A DNA stretch of 64,000 nt. Source: an uncultured Enterobacterales bacterium. GTDB lineage: Bacteria; Myxococcota_A; UBA796; CAJQPC01. Location: positions 3,228 to 67,227 of the forward strand of contig CAZSAT010000023.1 of the NCBI GenBank assembly GCA_964604675.1. The letters are read 5' to 3'. This document shows positions 34,238-43,000 of this stretch, in pieces (the stretch's first letter is position 1; the number at the start of each line of letters is the position of its first letter). A program made the translations under genes and the position numbers. Below the pieces are notes generated by a model. The model had not been told where the DNA came from. It saw nothing but the letters and a program-made list of their open reading frames with translations, and made no database searches.

Positions 34238-35362
34238 TCAGTCGATGGAGCGCGAGAAGAAGGTCGGGATGTCGTAGTCGTCGCTGTTGAGGTCGAAGCC
34301 GCTCGACATCGACTCCGGCGTGCGACCACGGCGCTGCGGACCGCGGCCACCGTTCGCGACCATCTGCACCACGCGACGCTCGACGGCCGGCTGCGTGGCA
34401 CGCGCCTGCTCCTCGAAGCCCGTGGCGATGACGGTCACGCGCGCCTCATCTTCCATGCTCTCGTCGTACACGAGCCCCCAGATGACGTGGGCGTCCTCGT
34501 GGGCCTCTTCCTGGATGAGCGAGCTGGCCTCGTGCACCTCGTACAGGGTGAGGTCAGCGTTGCCCGTGACGTTGATCAGCACGCTGGTGGCTCCGGCGAT
34601 GCTCACGTCGTCCAAGAGCGGCGACGAGATCGCCTTCTGCGCGGCATCCACACACTTGTGGTCACCGTTCGCGGTGCCGATGCCCATCATCGCCACGCCC
34701 TTGTTCGCCATGATCGTGCGGACATCGGCGAAGTCGACGTTGATCTGACCGCTGTCGTTGATGAGATCGCTCACGCCCTTGACGGCCTGCAGCAGCACCT
34801 CGTCTGCCATGCGGAAGGCCTCCTTGAGCGTGGTGCGCTCCGTGGCCATCGAAAGCAGGCGCTGGTTCGGGATGGTGATGAGGGTGTCGACCACGCTCTT
34901 CAGGTTCTCGACGCCGTGGTCGCCTTGCTTCCGGCGGCGCTTCCCTTCGAAGAAGAACGGACGCGTCACCACACCCACCGTCAACGCACCGATCTCCTTG
35001 CAGATCTGGGCGATGACCGGCGCAGCTCCGGTGCCCGTGCCGCCACCCATGCCCGCGGTCACGAACACCATGTCGGCACCGACGAGCAGCTCGGCGAGGC
35101 GCTCGCGGTCCTCGAGCGCGCTCTCGCGGCCCATGTCCGGGTTCGAGCCCGCACCGAGCCCCTTGGTCAGCTGCGTGCCCAGCTGGAAACGGCGAGGCGC
35201 CAGGCTCTTGGCGAGGTCCTGGGCGTCGGTGTTCACGGCGATGAACTCCACGCCCTTCAGGCCGTTGGCGATCATCGTGTTGACGGCGTTGTTACCGCCG
35301 CCGCCGACGCCGATCACCTTGATGCGTGCGCCCATCAGCTCGTTTTCGATCATCTCGATCAT
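34238..35362 (-). CDS. ftsZ: Cell division protein FtsZ
   Basis: [28 protein letters not shown]-terminal DIPTF. Confidence 0.98.
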
Positions 35363-35418
35363 GGGGGGACCTCGGGGAGTTTCTTGTGGGGCTTGTGGAG
35401 AGAGCCGGGGAGCTCGGC

Positions 35419-36165
35419 TCAGGTGGGAAGCGGGGTGACGATGGCGCGGTCGATCAGATCGAGGTCGACGCGCGTCGGTGTCTGGAGATCGAGCCCAGAC
35501 GCCACGAGCCTGTCGAGGCGCTCCAGGCGCTTTGCGGGGTCCAGGAGGCCGAGGTGGACGGCACTGCCCGAACGAAGTCGGAGGGTGAAGCCCAGATCGG
35601 CATCGAAGGCCAGCTCGCTCACGTCCTCGGCGGCGAGGCTGGCGTGACCGTCCAGCGCATGGAGCAGCGCAACCGCCTCGATCACCACCCGTTGGCCCAC
35701 GCTGGCGTGTTCGTGCACGAGCCGCCCGTCGAGGCCCGTGAGCACGGGCAGATCCAGATCGCTGGCGTGGGCACGCGCGAAGACCTGACCGAGCGTCGAG
35801 ACACGGAAGAGTCCGTCTTCGACCAGCAGCAGCATGGCCTGTTGGTGCTCGACGACACGGATCTCCACCCGACCCTGCAGATCCCGGCGCACCTCGGAGC
35901 TGGCGACCCAAGGGTGACGGTCGACTGCCGCGACGGCGCCGTTGAGGTCGAGCGCAGTGAGCGGCTGGCCAGGACGGATGTCGGCGAGGTGACGAAGCGA
36001 GGTGTCGGACGCGTGCTGAGCGCCGACGACCTCGACCGACGCGACGCGCGGCACCGCCTCGGCCAGCGCATCGCGCTGCCAGGCGGCCAGGGCGACCCCC
36101 CCCGCGACCACCAGGACCACGGGGAGCTTCGCCTGCGCGTGCATGACCGACCACATCTGCTTCAC
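35419..36165 (-). CDS. ftsQ: Cell division protein FtsQ/DivIB
   Basis: TM helix, POTRA (VEVVG...[11 protein letters not shown]...IRVVEH), C-terminal DL motif; position ddl-ftsQ-ftsZ. Confidence 0.85.
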
Positions 36166-36227
36166 CTGCCGCTTCAGCTCCAGCGCCCGAGACGGGCGCC
36201 GGGAGGCGCTTCAACCGCTACCAGGTG

Positions 36228-36257
36228 ATTGTAAGAAGCCCGCTCAACTCTTGACAA
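36228..36257 (-). promoter_or_regulatory. Internal sigma70-type promoter for ftsQ-ftsZ
   Basis: TTGTCA-18 nt-TACAAT in an AT-rich patch between ddl and ftsQ. Confidence 0.55.
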
Positions 36258-36348
36258 GTAAATAGGTCGCTTTTTTGTGACAGGCCCCGAAAGACGACGC
36301 CGTCGGGCGTTCAGTGGGATCGGAGCAAGGATCCTTGCCGATGACGCG

Positions 36349-37272
36349 TCAACCGTCGTGGGGCGCGAGATGGAGCCTGGCCCGGAGCAACAGCCCATCG
36401 ACGAGGCTGTCGAAGTCGACGCCGACGGCCTGCGCCGCCATGGGCGAGAGGCTGGTGGCCGTCATGCCGGGAATGGTGTTGATCTCCAGGAACCAGGGCA
36501 CGCCCTGGGCGTCCACGATGAAGTCGGCCCGCGCGATGCCCGAGAGCCCCAGGGTCTGGTAGGCGGTCACCGCACCGGCTCGAGCCAGCCGAGCCGTGTC
36601 CTCCGGCAGCATCGCCGGGACCACGTAGCGGGTCGCTCCCTTGGTGTACTTGGCCTCGAAGTCGAAGAACCCCGACTCCGGAACGATGGCGACCACAGGG
36701 AGCGCGCGCCCGTCGAGCACGGCGACCGTGATCTCGTCGCCGGCGATGCGCTGCTCCAGCAGGACGGTGTCGTCGAGCTCGCCAAGCTCGACCAGGGCAC
36801 GCTCGAGGCCGGCCTCGTCGTCGACCATCGCGATGCCGAGGGTCGAGCCCCCACACGGCGTCTTGGCGACGACGGGCAGCCCGATGTGGGGCAGGCCGTC
36901 ACCGCGCCTCCACACCGCGTCCGCCGGCATCGCGATGTCGGTGTCGGCGAGGAGCCGCTTGGTGGTGACCTTGTCCATCGCGACCGCGGACTCCTTGGGA
37001 CCGGAGCCGGTGTACGGAATGCGCATCACCTCCAACAGGCCCTGCACGCAGCCGTCTTCGCCAAAGGCGCCGTGGAGGGCGATCCAGACCGCGCGGGCGC
37101 CCGACGCGACCAGCTGCGCCGGTAGATCGGGCCCGACGTCGATGCCCACGACGTCCCAGCCCTTGCGCTCCAGCGCGCCGAGCACCGCAGCCCCCGACTC
37201 CAAGCTCACGCCCCGCTCGCTCGACAGGCCGCCCATCAAGACCGCCACGGGCCAGTCACGTTGTACCTGCAT
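36349..37272 (-). CDS. ddl: D-alanine--D-alanine ligase
   Basis: GGLSSERGVS, LHGAFGEDG, FDFEAKY, EINTIPGMT. Confidence 0.96.
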   Translation of the reverse strand: MQVQRDWPVAVLMGGLSSERGVSLESGAAVLGALERKGWDVVGIDVGPDLPAQLVASGARAVWIALHGAFGEDGCVQGLLEVMRIPYTGSGPKESAVAMDKVTTKRLLADTDIAMPADAVWRRGDGLPHIGLPVVAKTPCGGSTLGIAMVDDEAGLERALVELGELDDTVLLEQRIAGDEITVAVLDGRALPVVAIVPESGFFDFEAKYTKGATRYVVPAMLPEDTARLARAGAVTAYQTLGLSGIARADFIVDAQGVPWFLEINTIPGMTATSLSPMAAQAVGVDFDSLVDGLLLRARLHLAPHDG

Positions 37273-38099
37273 CAGCTCCTCCCGACGGGTCGACGCTCGA
37301 CCTCGAGCTCGACCCCACTGACCGTCTTCACGCGGTCCTTGATCATCTTCACCAGCAGCCTGTGATCCGCCGAGCTGCCCCCACCGAGGTGCACGAGCGC
37401 GTTCGGCTCCCGCTCCCCCACGCGCAGCTGCCGAAGCCTCACGCCACAGAGGCCCGCCTCGGCGATGGCCCGGGCAGCCGTCACGTGCTCCGAGTCCTTC
37501 ATCAAGCGCCCCGGCAGGCCTTCGGCTTCTCCGCGCCGCGCCTGCCGAGCCTCAGCGTAGTCGCCGAGCCCCACCATGGGCCGGAGCGCCAGGCGAAGGG
37601 AGGTCGCCACCCGGTTGGCGGAGGCCTGCTTCGCCCACGAAAAGACCGACCCTCGCAAGGCCCTCACAGCGACCGGCGCGACGTGGCCCGCGCGCCAGGC
37701 CGAGGCCACCGTCCCCGCACGGCCGGCGAGCGCCTCGACACCCGCCAGCCCTTCCGCTTCGGCCCAGCAAGCGAACACGCTCGCGCCCACTTCGGTGCCG
37801 ACGTCGACCATGAGCCCATCACGGGTCATCCCGCGGGCCGCTCCCCCGAGCGCCATCCACGCCCCCCCGAGCCCGCCGTCCAACACCCAGTCGGGTGCCG
37901 CCGACCAGGGTCGGAGCGGCACGTCAGCGGCGCTGGCCAGCCTCGCGGCCTCGCCAGCCGCCGCTTCGGTCTCTGCCAGGAGCCAGAGATCGATCGGCCC
38001 GCCGAGGCGGAGGGTGGTGTGCCGCGCCGCGGGCTCGCCGGCGCGCACGACCAGGTCGGGCACCTCTTCCAACGCTGCGACGAAGGCGTCTTCGATCAT
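37272..38099 (-). CDS. Degenerate MurB-like protein, likely not catalytic
   Basis: In the murB slot with HTTLRLGGP, GL.GVE.L.G..GTV and C-terminal GVELEVE. GxGSN, MNAG and SAGSxFKNP cannot be found. Confidence 0.75.
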   Translation of the reverse strand: MIEDAFVAALEEVPDLVVRAGEPAARHTTLRLGGPIDLWLLAETEAAAGEAARLASAADVPLRPWSAAPDWVLDGGLGGAWMALGGAARGMTRDGLMVDVGTEVGASVFACWAEAEGLAGVEALAGRAGTVASAWRAGHVAPVAVRALRGSVFSWAKQASANRVATSLRLALRPMVGLGDYAEARQARRGEAEGLPGRLMKDSEHVTAARAIAEAGLCGVRLRQLRVGEREPNALVHLGGGSSADHRLLVKMIKDRVKTVSGVELEVERRPVGRS

Positions 38100-39472
38100 G
38101 AATCGAGCGCCGAGAGCAGGCGTTCGCAGAGGGTGTTCACGTGGCCGGCGCCGAGCGTGATCACCAGATCACCAGGTCGCTGCTCACGCACCAGCCAAGC
38201 GAGCGCGCCATCGAGATCGTCGCACTCCGAGACCCCCCTGTGGCCGTGCGCCCGCAGCCCGTCGGCGAGCGCGGCGTGATCGACCCCCGCGATCGGCTCC
38301 TCCCCCGCCGCATAGACAGGACAGACCAACACCTCGTCGGCAGCGTTGAAGGCCCGGCAGAAGTCCGCCTGCAGGTCGCGCACTCGGCTGTAGCGGTGGG
38401 GCTGGAACACCGCGACCACCCGGCGTTCCGGGAAGCCCTCACGGGCGGCCGTCAGGGTCGCCGAGATCTCCACGGGATGGTGCCCGTAGTCGTCGACCAC
38501 GAGCACATCGGCGACCTCGCCACGCACCGTGAAGCGGCGCTGCACGCCCGTGAACCCCGACAGGCCATCGCGGATGGTGTGGAAGGGGATGTCGAGCTCC
38601 AGGGCCGTGGCGACCGCGGCCAGCGCGTTCTGCACGTTGTGCTGGCCGGGCATGCCCAGCTCGATCACGCCCAGCCGCTCGCCGAGGCGATGCACCTCGA
38701 ACGACGTGGCCAGACCGTCGGCGCGGAGCTCGGCGGCGCGCACCTCGGCCTGGCGACTCAGCCCGTAGGTGACCACCTTCTTTCGGAGGCGGGGCAGCAG
38801 GTCCTGCACGACGGGATGATCGAGGCAGGCGACCGTGAATCCGTAGAACGGCACCTTGTTTCCGAAGGCCGCGAAGGTGTCGGTGAGGGCCTCGAAGCTG
38901 CCGTAGTGGTCGAGGTGTTCCGGGTCGACGTTGGTGACGATGGCGATGGTGGGCGCGAGCAGCATGAAGCTGCCGTCGCTCTCGTCGGCTTCGGCCACCA
39001 GGAACTCGCCGCGACCGAGCCGCGCGTTGCTGCCGATGGCATCCAGGATGCCGCCGATCACCACCGTCGGGTCCAGGTCCGCGCGGGCCAGGACCGTGGC
39101 GAGCATCGACGTGGTGGTGGTCTTGCCATGGGTACCGGCGACCGCGATTCCGGACTTCACCCGCATCAGCTCGGCGAGCATCTCCGCCCTCGGAATCACC
39201 GGGACGTGGGCTTCGTGCGCCGCTCGGATCTCGGGGTTTTCCTCGGAGACGGCGGTGGACTTCACCACCACGTCCGCAGAGCCCAGGTTGCCGGGCTCGT
39301 GCCCGATGTGCACCTCGGCACCCAAGCGCCGCAGACGCTGCACGGCCGCCCCCGCCTTGAGGTCGCTCCCGGTGACCGAGTACCCCAGGTTGAGCAGCAC
39401 CTCGGCGATGCCACACATGCCGGAGCCGCCGATACCGACGAAGTGGATCTGGCCGACCTTGCCACGAAACAT
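38096..39472 (-). CDS. murC: UDP-N-acetylmuramate--L-alanine ligase
   Basis: HFVGIGGSGM, GTHGKTTTT, EADESD, DDYGHHP, FQPHRYSR. Confidence 0.97.
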   Translation of the reverse strand: MFRGKVGQIHFVGIGGSGMCGIAEVLLNLGYSVTGSDLKAGAAVQRLRRLGAEVHIGHEPGNLGSADVVVKSTAVSEENPEIRAAHEAHVPVIPRAEMLAELMRVKSGIAVAGTHGKTTTTSMLATVLARADLDPTVVIGGILDAIGSNARLGRGEFLVAEADESDGSFMLLAPTIAIVTNVDPEHLDHYGSFEALTDTFAAFGNKVPFYGFTVACLDHPVVQDLLPRLRKKVVTYGLSRQAEVRAAELRADGLATSFEVHRLGERLGVIELGMPGQHNVQNALAAVATALELDIPFHTIRDGLSGFTGVQRRFTVRGEVADVLVVDDYGHHPVEISATLTAAREGFPERRVVAVFQPHRYSRVRDLQADFCRAFNAADEVLVCPVYAAGEEPIAGVDHAALADGLRAHGHRGVSECDDLDGALAWLVREQRPGDLVITLGAGHVNTLCERLLSALDS

Positions 39473-40623
39473 CAGGCGCTCCGGAGGGCCTCGGGCAGCG
39501 GGGCCGCCGAGAAGCTGGGGCGCCGTGCTCGGCTGGACGCGGCGGCCACGTTCAGCAGCGCGCCGATGGAGAAGAGGTGGCACATCAAGGCGGACGGCCC
39601 GTAGCTCATGAAGGGCAGCACGAGGCCCTTCGGCGGCAACACGCCCATCTCGACCCCAAGGTTCAAGGCAGCCTGGATGCCGATGAGCGCGGTGAGCGCG
39701 CCGGCGACCAGGGTTCCGAAGAGGTCCGGCGCGCGACGCGAGATGGCCAGTCCCCGCCAGCAGAGGGCCGCGTACAGTCCGAGGAGCACGAGCACGCCGA
39801 CGAGGCCTGCCTCCTCGGCGAACACAGCGCCGACGAAGTCGGTCCACGGCTCGGGGAGGAACAGGTGCTTGGCCTGCCCTTCCCCGAGACCTGCCCCGGT
39901 GAGCCCGCCGTTGGAGAAGGCGATCATCGACTGGATCACATGGTAGCCGGTGCCCGCCGGATCGGCCCACGGGTCGATGAAGCTCATGACCCGCTTCATG
40001 CGGTACGAGAACAGCAGGACCAGAGGGATGCCCGCCGCCACGCCGAGCGCCACGAGCCCGCCGACCCAACGCAGCGGGAGTCCTGCGAGGAAGAGCACCA
40101 GGCCGGCGGTCAGGGCCAAGAGCACCGTGGTGCCGAAGTCCGGCTCGAGGAGGGTGAGCACCATGAGCGGCGCCGGGATGAGCAGGGCGGGCACCATCAC
40201 ACGCTTCAGGTCGGTGAGCGCGCCGGCGCGACGGGACAGGAAGTCCGCCATGCAGACGACCAGGGCCAGCTTCGCGAACTCCGAAGGCTGCACGTGCACG
40301 CCTGCCATCCCGATCCAGCGCGAGGCGCCGTTGGCGGAGTGGCTGATGCCGGGGACGAAGCAGAAGCTCAGGCCGAGCATACAGAGCGCATAGAACGCCC
40401 AGGCCCCCTCTCGTAGCCACCGGTACGGCATCCATGCCAGGCCGCACGCGCCGGCAACGCCCACGGCCACGCCGAAGGCCTGCCGCTTCACGTAGTAGAG
40501 GCTGTCGCCGCTCCAATCCAGCGCCGTCGGACCGCTGGCCGACTGCACCATGAGCAGACCCAGCACCAGCAAGGCTGCCACCAGGCCGATCAGGACCCCA
40601 TCACGCTTGTTGGGCACACTCAT
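39472..40623 (-). CDS. ftsW: SEDS protein FtsW
   Basis: NGASRW, QPSEFAK, LEPDFGT, LPEPWTDF, PFMSYG. Confidence 0.95.
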   Translation of the reverse strand: MSVPNKRDGVLIGLVAALLVLGLLMVQSASGPTALDWSGDSLYYVKRQAFGVAVGVAGACGLAWMPYRWLREGAWAFYALCMLGLSFCFVPGISHSANGASRWIGMAGVHVQPSEFAKLALVVCMADFLSRRAGALTDLKRVMVPALLIPAPLMVLTLLEPDFGTTVLLALTAGLVLFLAGLPLRWVGGLVALGVAAGIPLVLLFSYRMKRVMSFIDPWADPAGTGYHVIQSMIAFSNGGLTGAGLGEGQAKHLFLPEPWTDFVGAVFAEEAGLVGVLVLLGLYAALCWRGLAISRRAPDLFGTLVAGALTALIGIQAALNLGVEMGVLPPKGLVLPFMSYGPSALMCHLFSIGALLNVAAASSRARRPSFSAAPLPEALRSA

Positions 40624-41900
40624 CGTGCTCTCTCCTGTGCGAGCCGCGCGAACTCGCGTCCGCGGTGCTCGAAGTTCTCGAACTCGTCGAAGCTGGAGCA
40701 GCCGGGGCTCAGCAACACCTCGTCGCCAGGACGGGCCACGCTCGACGCCACGGCCACCGCATCCTCCAGGCTCCGGGCGCGAAGCGGCGACAGCGTGGCC
40801 AGCTGCTCGGCAATCAGCTCGCCTGCCCCGCCGAAGCAGATGACGGCGCGCGCACTGCGCTCCAGCGCCGCCTTCAACACCCCGAAGTCGCTGCCTTCCT
40901 TGGCCTGCCCACCGAGCAACACGACAGCGGGCCGCGCGAGGCCAGCCAGGGCCGCCTCGGTGCTGGCCAGGTTCGTGGCCTTGGAGTCGTTGACGAAGCG
41001 CACGCCGCCGTGCTCGGCCACCAACTCGAGGCGATGAGGCAGCCCGACGAGCCGCCCGGCGTCCAGCTCGTCGATGGACGCACCCACACCCTGGGCGAGC
41101 AGGGCCGAGACCCCGGCGTTCCACTGGTTGATGCTCCCCTCCACCGCGGAGACGTCGAGCTCGCCATGGTCGAAGCGTGCCATGCCCTGGTCGACCTGCA
41201 CGCCGGGCAACGCATCGAGCCACCGCCGCTCCCCACCGCGTCCAGCCGAAGCCGCGAGGAGCCGGGGGTCGTGGGGCATGCAGGCCCAGCCCTCGTTCGG
41301 GAGCGCGTCGAAGAGGCGGCACTTGTGCTCGGCGTAGACTTCCATCGTGCCGTGGCGGCCGAGATGATCCATGCTGAGGTTGAGCACCGCGGCCACGCTC
41401 GCCGTGAAGCTCCCGGGCAGCTCGAGCTGGTAGGAGGAGACCTCGACGACGAGCACGTCGTAGTCCCCGCCGACCGCCTCCGAGAGCGGAGTGCCCAGGT
41501 TGCCTCCCGCGAAGACCCGCCGACCGGCCTGCGTCAGGAACTGGGCCGTGTAGCTGGTCACCGTGGACTTGCCGTTGGTGCCTGTCACGGCGACGGTCGG
41601 AACGTGCGGAAGCAGGCGCGCCGCGAAGCCGAGCTCACCGACCACGTCGACGCCCGCAGCACGCGCCAATGCGACAGGGGGCGCCGCAGCGGGCACTCCG
41701 GGGGAGACCACGACGACATGTGCGTCGACCAGATCGGCATCCCGGTGCCCACCGAACACGTTCTCGACACCATCGAGCGGCGTCGCCTCGGGGTTCCGGT
41801 CGGTGAGCACCACCCGCGCACCGAGCGACGCAGCGAGCGACGCGGCGGCCCGACCGGAGCGACCGGCCCCGAGGACGGTGACCTGGCGATCCGCCAACAT
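40620..41900 (-). CDS. murD: UDP-MurNAc-L-Ala--D-Glu ligase
   Basis: GAGRSG, VSPGV, GTNGKST, EVSSYQL, NDSKATN, SPGCSSFDEF. Confidence 0.96.
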   Translation of the reverse strand: MLADRQVTVLGAGRSGRAAASLAASLGARVVLTDRNPEATPLDGVENVFGGHRDADLVDAHVVVVSPGVPAAAPPVALARAAGVDVVGELGFAARLLPHVPTVAVTGTNGKSTVTSYTAQFLTQAGRRVFAGGNLGTPLSEAVGGDYDVLVVEVSSYQLELPGSFTASVAAVLNLSMDHLGRHGTMEVYAEHKCRLFDALPNEGWACMPHDPRLLAASAGRGGERRWLDALPGVQVDQGMARFDHGELDVSAVEGSINQWNAGVSALLAQGVGASIDELDAGRLVGLPHRLELVAEHGGVRFVNDSKATNLASTEAALAGLARPAVVLLGGQAKEGSDFGVLKAALERSARAVICFGGAGELIAEQLATLSPLRARSLEDAVAVASSVARPGDEVLLSPGCSSFDEFENFEHRGREFARLAQERAR

Positions 41901-43000
41901 CAGCGCAGCTTCAGGGTCGACAGGGCGACCAGTGCGAGGAGGATGCTGATGATCCAGAACCGCACGATGATCTTGGGCTCCGACCAGCCCTGCTTCTCGT
42001 AGTGGTGATGGATGGGCGCCATGGCGAAGATGCGCTTGCCGCGCAGCTTGTAGCTGCCCACCTGGAGGATGACCGAGAGCGCCTCCATCACGAAGACGCC
42101 GCCGATCACCGCGAGCAGCAGCTCGTGATGGGTCAGCAAGGCGAGCGAGCCGAGCACGCCGCCGAGCGCCAGGGAGCCCACGTCGCCCATGAAGATCTGC
42201 GCAGGGTAGGCGTTGTACCAGAGGAACCCGAGGCCAGCACCGACCAGGCACATCGCCAGGATGGTCAGCTCGCTGGCACCGTCGACGTAGGGAACCGACA
42301 GGTAGTCGGCAAAGCCCACGTGCCCTGCCACGTACGCGAGGATGCCGTAGCAGACGGCGGAGGTCATCACGGGCCCGATCGCCAACCCGTCGAGGCCATC
42401 GGTGAGGTTCACGGCGTTCGAGGCGCCGACGAGCAGGAAGAGCACGAAGAGCACCCAGATCCAGACGTAGGGGCCCGAGAAGTCGAGCACGATCTCCTTG
42501 AGAAACGGCAGCGGCACGATGGGTTCGATCACGCCGGCGTACCAGCCCCACCCGAAGGCGCCCCCGCCGATGAGGACCTGGAACAGGATCTTCATGCGTC
42601 CGGCCAGGCCGTCGGAGCTGCGCTCCATGACCTTCTTCCAGTCGTCGTAGAATCCGATGGCGCCGTAGCCGACCAGCACGAACAGCGCGATCCAGACCAC
42701 CGGCTGATCGAGCCGGCACCACATCAGGGCCGACAGGGTGATGCCGACCAACATCGGGACACCGCCCATCGTGGGCGTTCCCGCCTTGTTCAGCAGGTGG
42801 CTGTCGGGCCCGTCGGTGCGGATGATCTGCTCCATCCGCTGCCTCTGCATCCAGCGGATGAACGCCGGGTAGAGCAGGTAGCAGAAGCCGAGCGCGGTGA
42901 TCAGCGCCCAGGCCGTGCGAAACGAGACGTACCGGAAGACGTTGAAGGCACCGAAGGCGCCCCCAGACTCCGAGAGCGGAACGAGCAGGTGGTAGAGCAT
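41900..43000 (-). CDS. mraY: Phospho-MurNAc-pentapeptide transferase
   Basis: KAGTPTMGG, NAVNLTDGLDGLA, FMGDVGS, APIHHH. Confidence 0.98.
   Translation of the reverse strand: MLYHLLVPLSESGGAFGAFNVFRYVSFRTAWALITALGFCYLLYPAFIRWMQRQRMEQIIRTDGPDSHLLNKAGTPTMGGVPMLVGITLSALMWCRLDQPVVWIALFVLVGYGAIGFYDDWKKVMERSSDGLAGRMKILFQVLIGGGAFGWGWYAGVIEPIVPLPFLKEIVLDFSGPYVWIWVLFVLFLLVGASNAVNLTDGLDGLAIGPVMTSAVCYGILAYVAGHVGFADYLSVPYVDGASELTILAMCLVGAGLGFLWYNAYPAQIFMGDVGSLALGGVLGSLALLTHHELLLAVIGGVFVMEALSVILQVGSYKLRGKRIFAMAPIHHHYEKQGWSEPKIIVRFWIISILLALVALSTLKLR

Follow-up and report, generated by a model that had tools for sequence, protein, structure and literature searches.

What supplies the MurB reaction in a genome whose murB, in the usual slot, appears to have lost its chemistry, and why would such a copy be kept? 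These questions are raised by a 64,000-nucleotide stretch of contig CAZSAT010000023.1 (hereafter the window) from the assembly GCA_964604675.1, an uncultured bacterium of the GTDB lineage Myxococcota_A. In its dcw cluster of division and cell-wall genes, the slot between murC and ddl holds an uninterrupted open reading frame (ORF) of 275 codons plus stop, at 37272..38099 on the reverse strand, which the initial annotation had read as an intact but apparently catalytically dead MurB. MurB is usually regarded as an antibiotic target and as an essential enzyme with one plain function. We find that the genome has a canonical murB on another contig. For the dcw copy we consider it fairly probable that it is a MurB-derived pseudoenzyme, which arose in place from the ancestral dcw murB and is kept for a non-catalytic role in Mur/Ddl precursor synthesis.

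In a Pfam search the window protein matched MurB_C alone (37.2 bits, cut-off 27), and the FAD_binding_4 domain (PF01565; FAD, flavin adenine dinucleotide) was not detected. This domain is weakly scored in 11 of 32 members of the family of pseudo-MurBs to which the protein belongs, which fits a remnant fold. All NCBIfam MurB equivalogs (TIGR00179, NF010480 and others) place the protein well under their cut-offs, with 26.7 bits for TIGR00179 against a cut-off of 144.5 and a best score of 54.1 bits against 259. The closest sequence match in the PDB is MurB 4pyt, aligned end to end (E = 7e-13). An AlphaFold2 model made with a 32-sequence family alignment reached a predicted local distance difference test score (pLDDT) of 91.9 and a predicted template-modelling (TM) score (pTM) of 0.84, and all 18 top matches in a Foldseek comparison with the PDB were MurB, the best again being 4pyt (TM 0.80, 21% identity). 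The protein is thus predicted to be well-folded and MurB-shaped. It has full-length homology to the type II (short) MurB enzymes (EC 1.3.1.98; PDB 4PYT, 3TX1, 1HSK and 2GQT) and occupies the same slot between murC and ddl; the two have in common a three-domain fold (TM 0.70-0.80) and a core made up of HTTxRxGGP, DGGxxG, GTV, AGLxG, NLGG and a C-terminal G.

What separates the window protein from type II MurB, besides its scores and the presence of a separate canonical MurB in the same genome, is the state of the flavin-binding and catalytic motifs. We read these from an alignment that contains the canonical MurB of the same genome and 113 other canonical sequences, and compared 126 pseudo-MurBs with 114 canonical proteins across the family. 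Both flavin loops, GxGSN and GGAxxMNAG, are gone. In domain 1 (residues 1-87; 37839..38099, reverse strand) the segment H27-T-T-L-R31-L-G33-G34-P is kept, and W65-SAAP69 (nucleotides 37893-37907) stands in place of the GxGSN loop. In domain 2, the former second flavin-binding subdomain (residues 88-189; 37533..37838, reverse strand), PGTVGGAVxMNAG has become A128-GTVASAWRAGH139 (nucleotides 37683-37718) with a six-residue deletion, the loop reading AGTVASAWRAGH; the YR segment with the catalytic Arg is deleted, as it is in 97-98% of the pseudo family. In domain 3, the former substrate-binding domain (residues 190-275; 37275..37532, reverse strand), CGSxFxNP is replaced by P196-G-R198-LMK-D202-S (nucleotides 37491-37517), so that an Arg occupies the column of the catalytic Ser, which is variable across the pseudo family. 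The initial annotation had named the same three motifs as altered, and its readings hold in alignment with canonical MurBs. Its further statement that only an N-terminal HTT.R.GGP and a C-terminal ELEVE remain was too narrow, as the DGGxxG, GTV, AGLxG and NLGG core positions are also kept.

The catalytic set that we tested consists of the equivalents of E. coli Arg159, Ser229 and Glu325 (Arg188, Ser238 and Glu308 in S. aureus). The column of the catalytic Glu is filled by E268 (nucleotides 37296-37298) in the window copy; the pseudo family shows no conservation of this Glu, Arg being the commonest residue (46%). Among the 114 canonical sequences, conservation is 100% at G55, G57, N59, G122, N128, G130, Y164, R165, F216, H247 and E284 and 99% at G123, and these twelve columns (G55 to E284) are all variable or deleted among the 126 pseudo-MurBs, with none kept. 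Core positions common to both groups are R31, G33, G34, D74, G76, G79, G101, G129, L217, G219, R221, G239, D245, G262 and G273, and those conserved in the pseudo family only are R223 (G in canonical MurB), P232 (A in canonical MurB), R256, G85 and L222. As far as its residues tell, the window protein is a pseudoenzyme, that is, a MurB homologue without the cofactor-binding and catalytic residues.

It could be supposed that the protein is an enzyme all the same, either a reductase with another cofactor arrangement or a protein that acts in a new way on a related substrate. The full MurB fold predicted with high confidence, the Glu at the catalytic-Glu column of the window copy and the weak FAD_binding_4 scores in 11 of the 32 family members would agree with this. 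However, no conserved replacement active site is seen, since throughout the family the flavin loops and the columns of Arg, Ser and Glu either vary or are deleted, and the MurB mode of FAD binding is closed to relatives that lack the whole middle domain (described below). The known reaction is also covered by a canonical MurB in nearly every carrier genome examined. We regard a surviving activity as highly improbable.

The initial annotation had reasoned that a second murB, an alternative reductase or a salvage route must exist, and the first of these is what a whole-genome search found. The second murB lies on the reverse strand of another contig (G000:C19:42837-43631) and scores 191.8 bits with TIGR00179, above the cut-off of 144.5. 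Its product has both Pfam domains and all of the motifs (LGNGSN, AYRH, PSCGSTFTNP, EKHANF and TPEV), and its PGTVGGAVxMNAG-type motif is PGTVGGAVVMNAG, given in the motif list also as GVPGTVGGAVVMNAG. No cell-wall genes adjoin this locus. The complete motif set indicates that this gene supplies the catalytic function. The genome is a metagenome-assembled genome (MAG) of 238 contigs with an estimated contamination of 1.28%; contamination is an unlikely source of the canonical copy because of this estimate, because 37 of 41 relatives have a second copy of this kind and because the tree of these copies matches the division of the order into families.

These relatives represent seven families and 25 genera of the order. 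The divergent copy is present, with no internal stops, in 37 of the 41 genomes, and a canonical copy above the cut-off is likewise present in 37. Both copies occur in most of about 120 genomes in a larger sample of the order, and the frame of the pseudo-MurB is intact in more than 100 genomes. G059 had seemed to hold only the pseudo copy, but the pseudo profile had missed its long, type-I-like MurB; in G109 (91% complete) only the pseudo copy was seen, and a congeneric genome has a canonical one. Some copies in family f3 carried a "1 TGA" flag, which we rejected as a sign of internal stops, the three of three that were checked being terminal stops read through. The divergent copy adjoins ddl in all 29 fetched related loci, with murC on the opposite side wherever the contig reaches, and this placement holds for each of the 25 genera first sampled. 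Identity to the window proteins across the order is 62-73% for MurC, 56-69% for Ddl and 44-69% for the type-II second MurB copies. A family profile was searched against 1.84 billion cluster representatives, and at least 100 of the best 150 were motif-less.

The ratio of non-synonymous to synonymous substitution rates (dN/dS) of pseudo-murB is 0.08-0.18 between close species (dS 0.28-0.67), and that of the canonical murB is 0.17, from the sole close pair in which both copies could be scored. Between the window and two close relatives from metagenomes, which are 70-72% identical and share the synteny, the values are 0.24 for the window gene, 0.16-0.17 for ddl and 0.10 for murC. The dead copy is fast-evolving but not drifting, as its dN/dS is well below 1. 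In a MAG of 238 contigs one might suspect that the ORF is a pseudogene in decay or arose as an artefact of assembly or binning, or that the canonical copy is a contaminant. The intact frame in so many genomes and the dN/dS values argue against the former possibilities, and the contamination estimate, the recurrence of a canonical second copy in 37 of 41 relatives and its family-like tree argue against the latter, so that we give this explanation a negligible likelihood. The dN/dS comparison across relatives, which the initial annotation had put forward as a check, yields intact orthologues under purifying selection, and neutral decay or a frameshift artefact is rejected on these grounds.

Constraint is not evenly spread along the protein. 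By domain, dN/dS is 0.07-0.39 in domain 1, 0.17-0.44 in domain 2, the least constrained, and 0.02-0.24 in domain 3, the most constrained. The family-conserved stretches of domain 3 are G219-V-R221-L-R223 and E231-P232-N233 (nucleotides 37401-37445), together with R256, and three of the five pseudo-only positions (R223, P232 and L222) lie on two domain-3 strands that carry the GGA and KHAN motifs in canonical MurB. The pseudo-MurB family is also basic, with a median isoelectric point (pI) of 10.0, a net charge of +7 and basic C-terminal tails, compared with 7.2 and 0 for canonical MurB.

Such features could be accommodated by a close rival to our explanation, one in which the protein is a ligand-binding pseudoenzyme whose remodelled domain-3 cleft still binds a UDP-sugar, for instance UDP-N-acetylmuramate (UDP-MurNAc) or enolpyruvyl-UDP-N-acetylglucosamine (EP-UDP-GlcNAc), and which, more than being a scaffold, either hands substrate to MurC or senses the level of precursor and regulates the pathway. 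The most constrained part of the protein is the domain that binds substrate in MurB; the pseudo-specific positions lie on the two strands and the loop of the canonical CGSxFxNP, GGA and KHAN motifs, where the new arginines R223 and R256 stand beside the retained R221; and the strongly basic character of the family points the same way. However, Y164, R165, K234, N218 and H247, which are 96-100% conserved in canonical MurB, are not kept, and the window copy is itself not basic. We therefore consider a ligand-binding role of this kind rather unlikely.

Other orders of the class (families f8, f9, f10 and f12) have the same arrangement as the window's order, with a motif-less copy directly after murC and a canonical copy elsewhere; in most of the orders outside the window's own, the dead copy occupies the slot between murC and ddl. 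Seven genomes have their sole MurB_C match in the dcw cluster; all seven copies are canonical, and in six of them the locus extends as far as murC (G044, G048, G051, G058, G060 and G066). The pattern in the class is complementary: where the dcw murB is canonical it is the only copy, and where the dcw copy is degenerate a working murB lies elsewhere. In the Nannocystaceae (Nannocystis, Plesiocystis and Enhygromyxa) a canonical dcw murB follows murC, and no ddl was found after it within the fetched flank (L118, L133-L137 and others). In the rest of the phylum outside the class, 86 of 90 sampled genomes have one MurB_C match, nearly all of them strong.

Weak matches were observed in two genomes from other classes of the phylum. 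In one the only MurB_C match is weak (29 bits; G175:C3:7768-8016), and in the other a weak match (53 bits; G165:C15:7065-7289) occurs beside a strong one. Both may be further cases of a dead MurB outside the class.

In a maximum-likelihood tree, whose long branches leave deep placement uncertain, the pseudo copies of the order unite with the f8, f9 and f12 copies (support 99/97). With the tree rooted among other phyla, this pseudo superclade groups with those canonical MurBs of the class that reside in the dcw cluster (99/93), as would be expected from descent in place. G043 (f10) has a degenerate dcw copy that is placed elsewhere, as sister to the canonical dcw copy of G048 (86/94), a member of another f10 genus in which the canonical dcw murB is the only copy (L159). 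The G043 copy (L154/L184) is partly degenerate, with GEGAG, MGAG, no YR, Ser changed to Gly, and HGN, and this genome has a second, type-I-like murB. It looks like a second, younger and independent loss of catalysis. The working second murBs are themselves of at least three kinds, namely a type-II clade found in most families of the order, the window's included, a separate f12 clade (L162-L170 and L176) and a long type-I-like clade in f8, f9, f10 (L168-L182) and f2 (L059, L062 and L064). Several kinds of second murB imply that the gene for catalysis has changed more than once, the dead copy persisting throughout.

The dead copy has also been cut down. In four genomes of family f8, G045 (L191), G052 (L189), G072 (L185) and G073 (L183), domain 1 is joined straight to domain 3. 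In these mini pseudo-MurBs the equivalents of window residues ~88-195 are gone, and the G(I/V)RLRG and DPN motifs and the basic C-terminal tail are kept. G057 (L187), of the same family, has only a partial deletion of the middle domain.

The initial annotation had described the full-length ORF as coupled to murC and ddl, and this is borne out at both junctions: the murC stop and the pseudo-murB start overlap as ATGA (38096..38099, reverse strand), and the pseudo-murB stop and the ddl start overlap as TGATG (37270..37274, reverse strand). Among related loci, an NTGA overlap is found at the murC/pseudo-murB junction in 22 of 28, and a candidate ddl start overlaps the pseudo-murB stop by 1, 4 or 8 nucleotides in 23 of 30. 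Conserved overlaps at both ends might mean that the ORF is simply an operon filler, kept so that ribosomes pass from murC to ddl, with its amino acids constrained only in so far as a misfolded, toxic product is avoided. The fast evolution of the protein would be consistent with this, and so would the shrinkage by about 100 residues in some lineages, as expected of a minimised product. But constraint would then hardly be so uneven, concentrated in domain 3 with dN/dS down to 0.02-0.09, and a few pseudo-specific residues are conserved across orders. The ORF is also kept in at least four orders of the superclade, and in G043 it was kept after a separate loss of catalysis. Finally, the gene is almost never deleted outright, although direct coupling of murC to ddl is feasible, given natural MurC-Ddl fusions (PMC10214165). 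Taken together, these points make a mere filler improbable.

We favour instead a structural or adaptor role, and propose the following course of events. An ancestor of the myxobacterial class would have acquired another working murB, unlinked to the first (here the copy on C19), after which the dcw copy would have lost its ability to bind flavin together with the catalytic Arg, Ser and Glu. It would have been kept as a folded protein, made alongside MurC and Ddl by way of the overlapping start and stop codons, and would act without catalysis in the cytoplasmic synthesis of peptidoglycan precursors, probably as a scaffold, adaptor or ligand binder. Most likely it would serve as a structural subunit or adaptor, with domains 1 and 3 binding MurC, Ddl or both. 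On this proposal the adaptor role would already have been present in the ancestral dcw MurB, and the unlinked copy would not supply it. A scaffold or regulator of this kind was suggested in the initial annotation; it fits everything observed and is the reading we prefer, although the role itself is deduced from genes.

Several lines of evidence lead us to this preference. Loss of the gene from between murC and ddl is very rare; domains 1 and 3 carry the constraint, and the flavin subdomain can be dispensed with; on at least two occasions another gene has taken over catalysis and the protein has stayed; and both MurC-MurB and MurC-Ddl fusions and the co-localisation of MurB with Mur ligases are documented in other bacteria.

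Other observations weigh on the opposite side. Conservation specific to the pseudo family is limited to a few positions (R223, P232, R256, G85 and L222), and the window copy deviates from residues that its family conserves, having A83 for R, A132 for G and H237 for N. It is also neutral (pI 7.0), unlike the basic family. Across the order the dead copy is 26-46% identical and evolves faster than MurC and Ddl (56-73%). Moreover, all carriers found are uncultured, known as MAGs or assemblies only: a scan of genome contigs with a family-specific pattern found the pseudo form in MAGs and in no cultured organism, and a search with the family-f12 copy matched metagenome proteins alone. One carrier, G067, is a complete genome of 9.4 Mb.

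Enzyme folds of the peptidoglycan pathway have been turned to other uses before. In mycobacteria the amidase homologue CwlM activates MurA, and the degenerate LytM domains of EnvC and NlpD activate amidases. In these proteins, as we propose for the pseudo-MurB, a fold from a peptidoglycan-pathway enzyme is kept without catalysis as a regulator or adaptor; they differ from it in fold and in the step of the pathway that they serve, and a regulatory role of the pseudo-MurB is hypothetical. A further likeness is to the natural MurC-MurB fusion proteins of Verrucomicrobia and the MurC-Ddl fusions of Chlamydiae and Firmicutes (PMC10214165). Together with the co-localisation of MurB with Mur ligases, they indicate that such proteins associate in other bacteria (PMC10214165, PMC6420597). 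The fusions tie MurC, MurB and Ddl to one another physically and stoichiometrically (PMC10214165), and in the window the tie is translation coupled by start and stop codons. Here, however, the three are separate polypeptides, and the MurB part is catalytically dead.

We would extend this only tentatively to a general statement, that the dcw-encoded MurB has a second, non-enzymatic function that can be separated from catalysis, for example in nucleating a MurC-MurB-Ddl assembly, and that a lineage which gains another murB frees the dcw copy to lose its chemistry but not to be lost. This outcome, with the chemistry freed and the protein retained, has occurred at least two times within the myxobacterial class. 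If the general statement is true, the smallest structural module of the long-suspected cytoplasmic complex of Mur enzymes would be revealed by the dead copies, especially by the mini forms with two domains. That selection maintains a dead copy in the murB slot throughout a class, with a second gene doing the chemistry, argues that the protein itself, beyond its activity, matters in the dcw context, and makes the debated complex directly testable. The natural series from full-length dead copies to two-domain mini forms offers a map of the parts needed for the non-catalytic role. The literature searched contained no description of a MurB pseudoenzyme or of a dead dcw MurB. The dcw copies of relatives are annotated by JGI as "UDP-N-acetylmuramate dehydrogenase"; "murB" annotations in the dcw cluster are wrong in these genomes, so that pathway reconstructions must seek the unlinked copy.

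The neighbours of the ORF lie on the same strand. Upstream is murC (38096..39472, reverse strand; 458 amino acids), whose start abuts ftsW, and downstream is ddl (36349..37272, reverse strand; 307 amino acids). Very long open frames, due to high GC content, had suggested a fusion of murC with pseudo-murB; we rejected this, as the two genes occupy different frames. The dcw cluster (window positions 34238-43000) has no ftsA between ftsQ and ftsZ, and no match genome-wide reached the TIGR01174 cut-off for FtsA (best 43 bits). It also has no murG between ftsW and murC, and this gene is found elsewhere in the genome, at G000:C58:3353-4408 (TIGR01133, 253 bits against a cut-off of 250.25).

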